Below, in pieces: positions 29,674-29,813 of a DNA stretch of 64,000 nt. The DNA lies in the NCBI RefSeq assembly GCF_965641715.1, contig NZ_OZ282453.1. One strand, given 5' to 3'. The position numbers and the translations under genes are program-made. The stretch's first letter is position 1; each line of letters starts with the position of its first letter. The notes under the pieces were generated by a model. It did not search any database. It was not told where the DNA came from and was given only the letters and a program-made list of their open reading frames with translations. This stretch comes from Escherichia coli (GTDB lineage: Bacteria > Pseudomonadota > Gammaproteobacteria > Enterobacterales > Enterobacteriaceae).

Positions 29674-29703
29674 TTGAATGAGCGTCGCATCTGGCACTAT
29701 TGG

Positions 29704-29731
29704 CGGATGCGGCGTAAACGCCTTATCCGCC
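29704..29731. repeat. REP element (first of a BIME-like pair)
   Basis: ggatgcggcgtaaacgccttatccgcc palindrome downstream of mntH. Confidence 0.7.
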
Positions 29732-29757
29732 CTACGCGTTAAAGAGCCGGTTTGTAT

Positions 29758-29789
29758 GCCTGATAAGACGCGCTAGCGTCGCATCAGGC
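29758..29789. repeat. REP element (second of a BIME-like pair)
   Basis: gcctgataagacgcgctagcgtcgcatcaggc, near-identical to the REP at 6599..6632. Confidence 0.75.
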
Positions 29790-29813
29790 ATTGTGCTCCA
29801 TTGGCGAATGTGT

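Follow-up and report, generated by a model that had tools for sequence, protein, structure and literature searches.

What are the short palindromes that follow mntH and that separate cysA from cysM in Escherichia coli, and do they do anything for the genes on either side? Both loci lie in the 64,000-nucleotide stretch of E. coli DNA that was analysed here (the window). At the first, mntH (28435-29673, + strand, with its TAG stop codon at 29671-29673), which encodes the Nramp Mn2+/H+ symporter and matches the mntH DNA of E. coli A16 at 100%, converges on ypeC (29814-30140, - strand; DUF2502) across a 140-nt spacer, 29674-29813, that is 3' untranslated region for both genes. At the second, cysA (5424-6521, + strand), the gene for the ATPase of the sulfate/thiosulfate ABC transporter, is followed in tandem by cysM (6655-7566, + strand), the gene for cysteine synthase B, across a 133-nt spacer, 6522-6654. 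The open reading frame list supplies mntH, ypeC and cysA, all three also named from E. coli annotation, and the GTG start of cysM is that of the RefSeq annotations; in matching E. coli genomes the segment 29300-30300 is annotated as mntH, ypeC and yfeO, and 6200-7000 as cysA and cysM. Over the former segment, identity is 100% with strain A16 and 96-99% with nearly all of the 5426 complete E. coli genomes. A longer CysM, a 329-residue open reading frame that starts at an ATG at 6577 and runs through the palindrome, was set aside as a mechanical extension that is not conserved in other species. The reading that is developed below, and that we hold with high confidence as a whole, is that these palindromes are ordinary repetitive extragenic palindromic (REP) elements of the y and z1 types, which would form a 3'-end barrier at mntH-ypeC and would be secondary to an older terminator at cysA-cysM.

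The REPs of E. coli are defined as imperfect palindromes of 30-40 nt with a GTAG tetranucleotide 5' of the foot, and come in types y, z1 and z2; K-12 has 584 copies, mostly in the inverse pairs that are called BIMEs (PMC3333891). Approximately 60% of E. coli REPs lie between convergent genes and approximately 40% between tandem genes (10.64898/2026.03.23.713779). In a blastn-short census of the 64-kb window, for which the consensus sequences of y, z1 and z2 served as queries, full-length REPs turn up at three places only: two in the mntH-ypeC spacer and one in the cysA-cysM spacer. The y and z1 labels given to the REPs of the window rest on these consensus sequences. In K-12, the annotated REP174 is made of units that fit the z2 and y consensus sequences, whereas those of the window match y or the third, longer form. 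Chance palindromes are rejected as an explanation because the y and z1 patterns, allowed up to three mismatches, have no match in 100 dinucleotide-preserving shuffles of the window, and because each of the two types has 40 or more copies on the chromosome in 5425 of the 5426 E. coli genomes. All copies in the window are extragenic, with arms of 14-16 nt that are 86-88% complementary and loops of 2-4 nt, and with the expected tags: GTAG at 6596-6599, CTAC at 29732-29735 and, as a variant, GTAT at 29754-29757. In sequence, length, internal mismatch bubble, GTAG/CTAC tag, extragenic location and high copy number they are like the y and z1 REPs of the K-12 catalogue, and nothing essential differs, the z1 copy after mntH having GTAT for GTAG. 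All three belong to the E. coli REP family as ordinary copies, with nothing unusual about them. Membership as such matters little: no repeat of E. coli is more abundant, and few have been known for longer. An Rfam scan of the whole window at the gathering threshold returned six tRNAs only and no match at either REP locus. The tables that were searched yielded a K-12 catalogue number, REP175, for the cysA-cysM copy and none for the mntH-ypeC pair, the RepRanger supplements list none of these genes, and none of the papers searched names cysM together with repetitive extragenic palindromic elements.

The preliminary description of this DNA had reported two different REP palindromes after mntH, and its coordinates prove right to within a few bases. 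The first, a y-type REP (29702-29735), is recognized by its palindrome, its match to the y consensus, its folding and its copy number. Its GTAG-tagged reading is on the - strand (iREP orientation on the + strand), its palindrome (29702-29731) is made of 14-nt arms that are 86% complementary and is followed by the CTAC tail (29732-29735), and it agrees with the y consensus at 30 of 32 positions by blastn-short. The linker GCGTTAAAGAGCCGGTTT (29736-29753, 18 nt), read directly from the sequence, extends from that CTAC to the GTAT of the second, z1-type REP (29754-29789, + strand), which is identified by palindrome, z1 consensus, folding and strain alignment. In this unit the tag at 29754-29757 precedes the core GCCTGATAAGACGCGCTAGCGTCGCATCAGGC at 29758-29789, the arms 29756-29771 and 29776-29791 are 88% complementary, and the match to the z1 consensus is 31/32 by blastn-short. 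A seven-strain alignment has GTAT in this strain, as against GTAG in the six others. The locus nevertheless comprises two and a half REP units rather than two. Eight nucleotides past the mntH stop codon lies a decayed half-REP (29681-29696, + strand), found with a repeat finder and blastn-short, which is the 3' half of a z1-like unit: its 16 nt share 94% identity with the corresponding half of the intact z1 REP (29775-29790), and 29681-29691 matches positions 5-15 of the z1 consensus perfectly (11/11, blastn-short). By itself it is no longer palindromic, but base pairing is possible between it and the y REP's 5' arm.

To call this arrangement BIME-like, as had been done, is fair: the y and z1 units are inverted, and their tag ends, the CTAC that closes the y REP at 29735 and the GTAT that opens the z1 REP at 29754, face each other across the 18-nt linker. 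BIME-1 is defined as z1 plus y in single copy at a locus (PMC3333891), and the composition here, one y and one z1 without tandem repetition, is that of BIME-1. Inverted orientation, the CTAC/GTAG ends toward the linker and the single-copy state are common to the pair and to BIME-1 (RIP/RIB). The differences are that BIME-1 has a long L linker, often with an IHF site, whereas the linker here is short and lacks an IHF core, and that the pair has an extra decayed half-unit on its mntH side. The IHF core WATCAANNNNTTR has no match with one mismatch or fewer on either strand of the 18-nt linker or of either spacer, and an IHF site in the linker is rejected on that ground; the 35-nt linker of K-12 REP174, in contrast, has a one-mismatch match, ATTCAATATATTG. 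As for BIME-2, the mntH-ypeC locus has neither a z2 unit nor a tandem array. On its sequence, the pair is best called BIME-1-like or atypical, and the label "BIME-1/RIP" would be unfit because the long L linker and the IHF site are absent.

These particulars also decide how seriously to take a role at the level of DNA, in which IHF sites (of BIME-1/RIP) or gyrase sites (of BIME-2) would organise local supercoiling between the convergent units. In its favour, convergent transcription produces positive supercoils, which gyrase must remove. The composition and single-copy state of the pair also fit the published definition of BIME-1 (PMC3333891). Against such a role stand the 18-nt linker in place of the long L, the absence of the IHF core at up to one mismatch from both spacers (in a comparison in which the REP174 linker does match), a pair that is neither of the y/z2 type, the one linked to gyrase, nor tandem and so is not BIME-2, and the finding that a model REP has no measurable part in long-range chromosome organisation (10.64898/2026.03.23.713779). 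The binding of gyrase or IHF that the preliminary description envisaged finds no support in the linker, the spacers or the type of the pair, and we consider a DNA-level role highly improbable.

What the pair might do as RNA is more promising. Each REP, whichever strand is transcribed, is predicted to fold into a hairpin that contains an internal bubble and has a stability of -20.9 to -24.3 kcal/mol, and the mntH-ypeC spacer as a whole folds better than its shuffles (z = -2.7 for the + strand and -4.4 for the - strand). In + strand RNA only, the half-REP and the 5' arm of the y REP can combine in an alternative hairpin (29682-29715) that is predicted to be more stable than the canonical y hairpin (-23.3 versus -21.3 kcal/mol), with predicted pair probabilities of 0.86 and 0.14, respectively. 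Prediction yields this alternative in three of seven E. coli strains only (that of the window, K-12 and O157), and it is rejected as a conserved feature because the other four do not have it. Its start 8 nt past the mntH stop codon invites the further thought that a stop-proximal REP hairpin stalls the terminating ribosome and thereby brings about tmRNA-dependent down-regulation, an effect that Liang, Rudd and Deutscher (2015) reportedly observed for REPs within ~15 nt of a stop codon. The canonical stems lie beyond that distance, at 28 nt from the stop codon of mntH, 22-24 nt from that of ypeC and 74 nt from that of cysA, and the one hairpin that is close enough is missing from the predictions for four of the seven strains; stalling at these loci seems to us scarcely credible.

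The 3' ends of the mntH and ypeC transcripts offer the REP hairpins a more plausible use. A terminator scanner (loop limit 3-8 nt) detected no intrinsic terminator in 29400-30200. For K-12, Adams et al. report that Rho terminates transcription of the mntH strand in a region at 2511284 (minus), with a score of 3.84 and a significance of 1.0e-10 (PMC7815308, Supplementary file 2). By a mapping that we infer from indel-free collinearity, it corresponds to approximately 29857 in the window, about 44 nt beyond the spacer, where the transcript is antisense to the last part of ypeC; this position is coarse, the Rho score having been computed over 800-nt windows. A small hairpin, CGCGG/CCGCG (29834-29857, + strand), ends at about the equivalent of this K-12 Rho region. 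The searchable table of Term-seq 3' ends (PMC7815308, supp. 1) lists none for mntH, ypeC, cysA or cysM.

There are precedents for REPs at such ends. Dar and Sorek showed that the final 3' end of a Rho-dependent transcript lies at a stable hairpin, in a quarter of cases a REP, that keeps out PNPase and RNase II, with Rho acting further downstream (PMC6061677). REP325 is terminator and stabiliser both. Among convergent gene pairs, a REP goes with higher expression; among tandem pairs it goes, on average, with a bias toward the upstream gene, with large variance from locus to locus, and genome-wide there is no general effect of REPs on half-life (all from 10.64898/2026.03.23.713779). REP325 (yjdMN) and the REPs of malE-malF resemble those of the window in forming hairpins in the transcript where an upstream gene ends, and what they lead one to expect is protection from 3' exonucleases together with partial termination, and from these an upstream-biased expression. 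REP325 differs in having 12 hairpins of the z2/y type, while the loci of the window have one or two.

The course of events that these observations suggest is as follows. REPs are non-autonomous repeats whose spread is attributed to the REP-associated tyrosine transposase, an enzyme that recognises GTAG. This enzyme (TnpA-REP/RAYT) exists in K-12 and needs that tag (PMC3333891); its gene is not expected in the window. REPs build up between genes where transcription units end, a place in which they are nearly harmless and in which, once transcribed, a REP should fold into a hairpin of approximately -21 to -24 kcal/mol. Transcription of mntH would most likely continue through the spacer until Rho ends it a few dozen nucleotides further on; 3'-to-5' exonucleases would then trim the transcript back to the REP hairpins, which would serve as a protective barrier. 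Because the spacer has no U-tract terminator, because the published Rho region lies beyond it and because other REPs provide the precedents, we infer that the REP pair is a two-sided 3'-end barrier for both genes. It would then be a clean natural example of the model in which Rho terminates downstream and a REP defines the stable 3' end.

How old is the pair, and is it kept? At 80% coverage or more, the mntH-ypeC region is present in 5318 E. coli genomes and the cysA-cysM region in 5422. The seven-strain alignment shows hardly any change in the y unit, the linker or the z1 unit; two of its strains depart strongly from the others in the half-REP region. The MntH cluster has members in E. coli and Shigella only; other genera were reached by a search for MntH homologues and by contig look-ups. 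The mntH-ypeC spacer is 60 nt in Salmonella enterica, 51 nt in Enterobacter kobei and 63 nt in Pseudescherichia vulneris, with a single hairpin in each: that of E. kobei is a textbook bidirectional terminator, AAAAAGCCCGGCG...CGCCGGGCTTTTT, and that of P. vulneris is a CTAC-tagged palindrome of another REP class. The spacers of these relatives being so short and having one hairpin, and the ~80 extra nucleotides of the E. coli spacer corresponding to the REP pair, the pair is probably a gain of the Escherichia lineage at a place where relatives have a terminator hairpin, a conclusion by parsimony from a handful of sampled species.

A rival view makes the REPs selectively neutral passengers without measurable effect, which persist only because these spacers tolerate insertions. 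REP content at equivalent sites varies among genera (none, one, pairs, other classes), the half-REP after mntH is decaying and differs among E. coli lineages, the GTAG of the adjacent z1 unit has mutated to GTAT in this strain, and among strains REP174 comes and goes together with yfeS; the absence of a genome-wide effect on half-life (10.64898/2026.03.23.713779) points the same way. Against neutrality, deep E. coli lineages have kept the stems with hardly a change, something must define the 3' ends in a mntH-ypeC spacer that lacks any other terminator structure, and convergent pairs that have REPs are the more highly expressed (10.64898/2026.03.23.713779). Neutrality is on balance unlikely, although it has a real chance of being right, and the barrier at mntH-ypeC remains the reading that we prefer.

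The spacer between cysA and cysM has a different composition. Its REP had been described as a near-identical copy of the second element after mntH, at 6599-6632; that identification stands, with the unit placed at 6596-6631 on the + strand. It is a single z1-type REP, established by palindrome, z1 consensus, folding and the K-12 catalogue, with the canonical GTAG at its 5' end (6596-6599) followed by the core, and with 35 of 36 positions in agreement with the z1 consensus (blastn-short). The two z1 cores of the window differ at one of 32 positions (31/32 identical), in the loop, and the units are alike at 34 of 36 when the GTAG/GTAT tags are included. K-12 REP175, catalogued in the supplement of a 2026 preprint as a tandem REP, cysA|cysM, at 2539608-2539643 (10.64898/2026.03.23.713779), maps to 6595-6630 of the window and is the orthologue of this copy, with one difference (GTAGG here, GTAGA in K-12). 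Six strains are 99% identical over the spacer, with GGGTTTTTT here versus GGGCTTTTT in the others.

Ahead of the REP, 21 nt past the cysA stop codon, lies another structure, recognized by folding and conservation: an intrinsic-terminator-like hairpin, CCCGGAGGCGCTTCCCGCGATCCGGG, followed by T6 (6543-6576, + strand); the K-12 allele has CT5 in place of T6. The preliminary description overlooked it, and the terminator scanner missed it as well, apparently on account of its loop limit of 3-8 nt. With a 7-bp outer and a 3-bp inner stem and a predicted -16.9 kcal/mol, it is a GC-rich stem-loop directly followed by a U tract, the criterion of an intrinsic terminator, and so is a predicted terminator. 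The REP begins 19 nt past the T tract and ends 23 nt upstream of the cysM GTG, ~12 nt from a Shine-Dalgarno-like stretch, GGACAGAG. A separate terminator-like hairpin ahead of the REP is a feature that sets this locus apart from REP325.

The predicted terminator is much the more widespread of the two. A scan for CysM in species-representative genomes gave 80 loci, 54 of which have cysA directly upstream across a spacer of 260 nt or less; a GC-rich hairpin with a T-rich tail, homologous or analogous to that of the window, is present in 47 of these 54 Enterobacterales spacers, against 3.4 expected from shuffles. The spacer is as short as 66-68 nt in several Citrobacter and Lelliottia genomes, where it holds only the hairpin with its T tract and, before cysM starts, a further 13-20 nt. 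E. coli and Escherichia albertii, with spacers of 133-134 nt, have a z1 REP beyond the T tract, and Pseudocitrobacter faecalis has a y plus z1 pair at the equivalent point; among the 54 spacers these three species are the only ones with a REP of the y/z class. The terminator stem itself is made of GTAG/CTAC-tagged palindromes, which belong to another class, in Enterobacter, other Citrobacter, Pluralibacter and Pseudescherichia. Their unit, GCCCGGTGGCGC...TTACCGGGC, resembles the E. coli cysA hairpin, GCCCGGAGGCGC...GATCCGGGC, and the colonisation of the spacer by tagged palindromes is common to all of them; the tagged palindrome of these genera is directly followed by the T tract, whereas the E. 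coli REP comes after the T tract. The conserved element of the spacer, on this comparison, is the terminator-like hairpin, around which REPs of various classes come and go. The REP of E. coli would be a later insertion in the Escherichia lineage, downstream of an older hairpin whose position is conserved.

This order of elements matters for the suggestion, made in the preliminary description, that the REP affects the expression of cysM relative to cysPUWA. The REP was there said to lie inside the cysM 5' leader, which is an assumption: the literature disagrees on the transcription unit, with cysM placed in cysPUWAM by one source (PMC3082872) and treated as a separate unit by another (PMC4705995). 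A scanner found no promoter-like site in 6300-6800, and sequence support for a separate cysM promoter within the spacer was not found. In an lsrR mutant, cysUWA is up approximately 9-fold and cysM is unchanged (PMC13393413). The split operon literature and these lsrR data fit an effective barrier between cysA and cysM, for which the terminator hairpin is the obvious candidate.

The same uncoupling in that one data set can be claimed for the REP, which might measurably set cysM against cysPUWA by stabilising cysA mRNA, by attenuating read-through or by occluding the region of the ribosome-binding site. Its closeness to the GTG and to GGACAGAG, its 99% conservation within E. coli and the upstream bias of tandem REP pairs on average (10.64898/2026.03.23.713779) speak in favour of such control. 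Yet the upstream hairpin, conserved across Enterobacterales, already explains both the uncoupling and the protection of the cysA 3' end; the genera with spacers of 66-68 nt do without any REP; the predicted fold shows no pairing of the REP with the Shine-Dalgarno or start region; and the average for tandem pairs comes with a large variance between loci (10.64898/2026.03.23.713779). Some additional effect of the REP is plausible, but that it measurably sets the expression of cysM is, in our judgment, rather unlikely, and the terminator-like hairpin, as judged by its position and conservation, is more likely than the REP to determine the cysA:cysM ratio and their uncoupling. The REP would be at most a second barrier or pause for read-through transcripts that have passed the older terminator.

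A bolder proposal for both loci is that the z1 REP has been co-opted for control specific to cysM (as a second attenuator, for example, or as a hairpin close to the 5' end of read-through RNA after processing), and that the half-REP/y hairpin couples the termination of MntH translation to the fate of the mRNA. We regard it as very doubtful. Were it true, E. coli would set CysM, the enzyme of the thiosulfate branch, differently from Citrobacter and Enterobacter, which lack a z1 REP at that place, and the coupling at mntH would concern the K-12/O157 lineage. The cysA-cysM spacer, with its conserved terminator-like hairpin and the REPs of different classes around it, bears on whether cysM belongs to the cysPUWA operon.

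The spacer between cysA and cysM holds a terminator-like element, a GC hairpin followed by a T tract at 6543-6576. Such a hairpin and T tract are found in 47 of the 54 Enterobacterales cysA-cysM spacers compared (each with cysA directly upstream of cysM and at most 260 nt long; loci L013-L088 of the comparison set), as against 3.4 in shuffled sequences. It is the position of the hairpin that is conserved across Enterobacterales, not its sequence, and in some genera the distance from the end of the hairpin and T tract to the cysM start is just 13-20 nt. Conservation of the element between the two genes and its closeness to the cysM start imply that cysM expression would come from transcripts reading through a leaky terminator after cysA. 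At the T tract itself (6571-6576), this strain and Escherichia albertii have T6 (GGGTTTTTT) and five further strains of E. coli have C+T5 (GGGCTTTTT), an allelic difference that could alter the efficiency of termination.

The T tract ends directly before the ATG (6577) of a mechanically called 329-amino acid ORF, 6577-7566, that is in frame with cysM and within which the REP is translated (MARFVTCRPDKTRKRRIRRHH...). This ORF was considered as a longer CysM and rejected: the N-terminal extension is spurious, other genera showing no conservation of it. The same REP site is occupied differently in Pseudocitrobacter faecalis (locus L014, 1342-1500), where an E. coli-type y + z1 REP pair lies exactly where E. 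coli has its single z1, between the same flanks (AATGGCAAGGTTT ... ACGTATGGACA). The CysM proteins of P. faecalis and E. coli share 97% identity, a value above that for E. albertii. The shared site and flanks, together with this identity, suggest that REPs turn over here at a hot spot or, alternatively, that lineages have exchanged the region.

At the other end of cysM (7567-7937), yfeK follows directly in this strain, while K-12 (locus L093, 2537600-2539800) has yfeS and REP174 between the two genes. In REP174 a z2 unit is joined to a y unit by a 35-nt linker that contains a near-IHF core. The junction without yfeS is the majority state: at least 80% of window 7420-7720 is covered in 4037 of 5426 genomes. 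YfeK ends in ..KTVPAQ in this strain and in ..KTVPAEGN in K-12.

After mntH, a decayed half-REP sits 8 nt past the stop codon and is able to base-pair with the y REP's 5' arm (both within 29681-29715), forming a predicted alternative hairpin in the mntH-sense RNA. Only in that RNA is this pairing predicted to beat the canonical y hairpin (pair probability 0.86 vs 0.14); predictions give the alternative hairpin for the sequences of the window, K-12 and O157 and not for four other strains. The z1 REP of the same spacer carries the tag GTAT (29754-29757) in this strain; the tag is a conserved GTAG in six other E. coli strains. Because the REP transposase requires GTAG for binding (PMC3333891), it may no longer accept the GTAT-tagged copy as a substrate.

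A published Rho termination region at K-12 2511284, minus strand (PMC7815308, supp. 2), corresponds to ~29857, just past the REP pair and antisense within the 3' end of ypeC. Transcription of mntH thus appears to enter ypeC antisense and then to be halted by Rho. Upstream of mntH, a very abundant Term-seq 3' end at K-12 2512788, minus strand (PMC7815308, supp. 3; two tabulated data sets give it about 1e5 and 5.9e4 reads), corresponds to ~28353, which lies 82 nt before the mntH ORF and about 12 nt before ypeD, a small ORF at 28365-28454. An abundant 3' end so placed suggests that transcription stops prematurely in the mntH 5' UTR or that a short leader RNA is made there; no Rfam family matched at ~28353. 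The Rfam scan did find two tRNA gene clusters elsewhere, four genes at 19816-20210 (-) and two at 22910-23097 (+), both unconnected with the REP finding.
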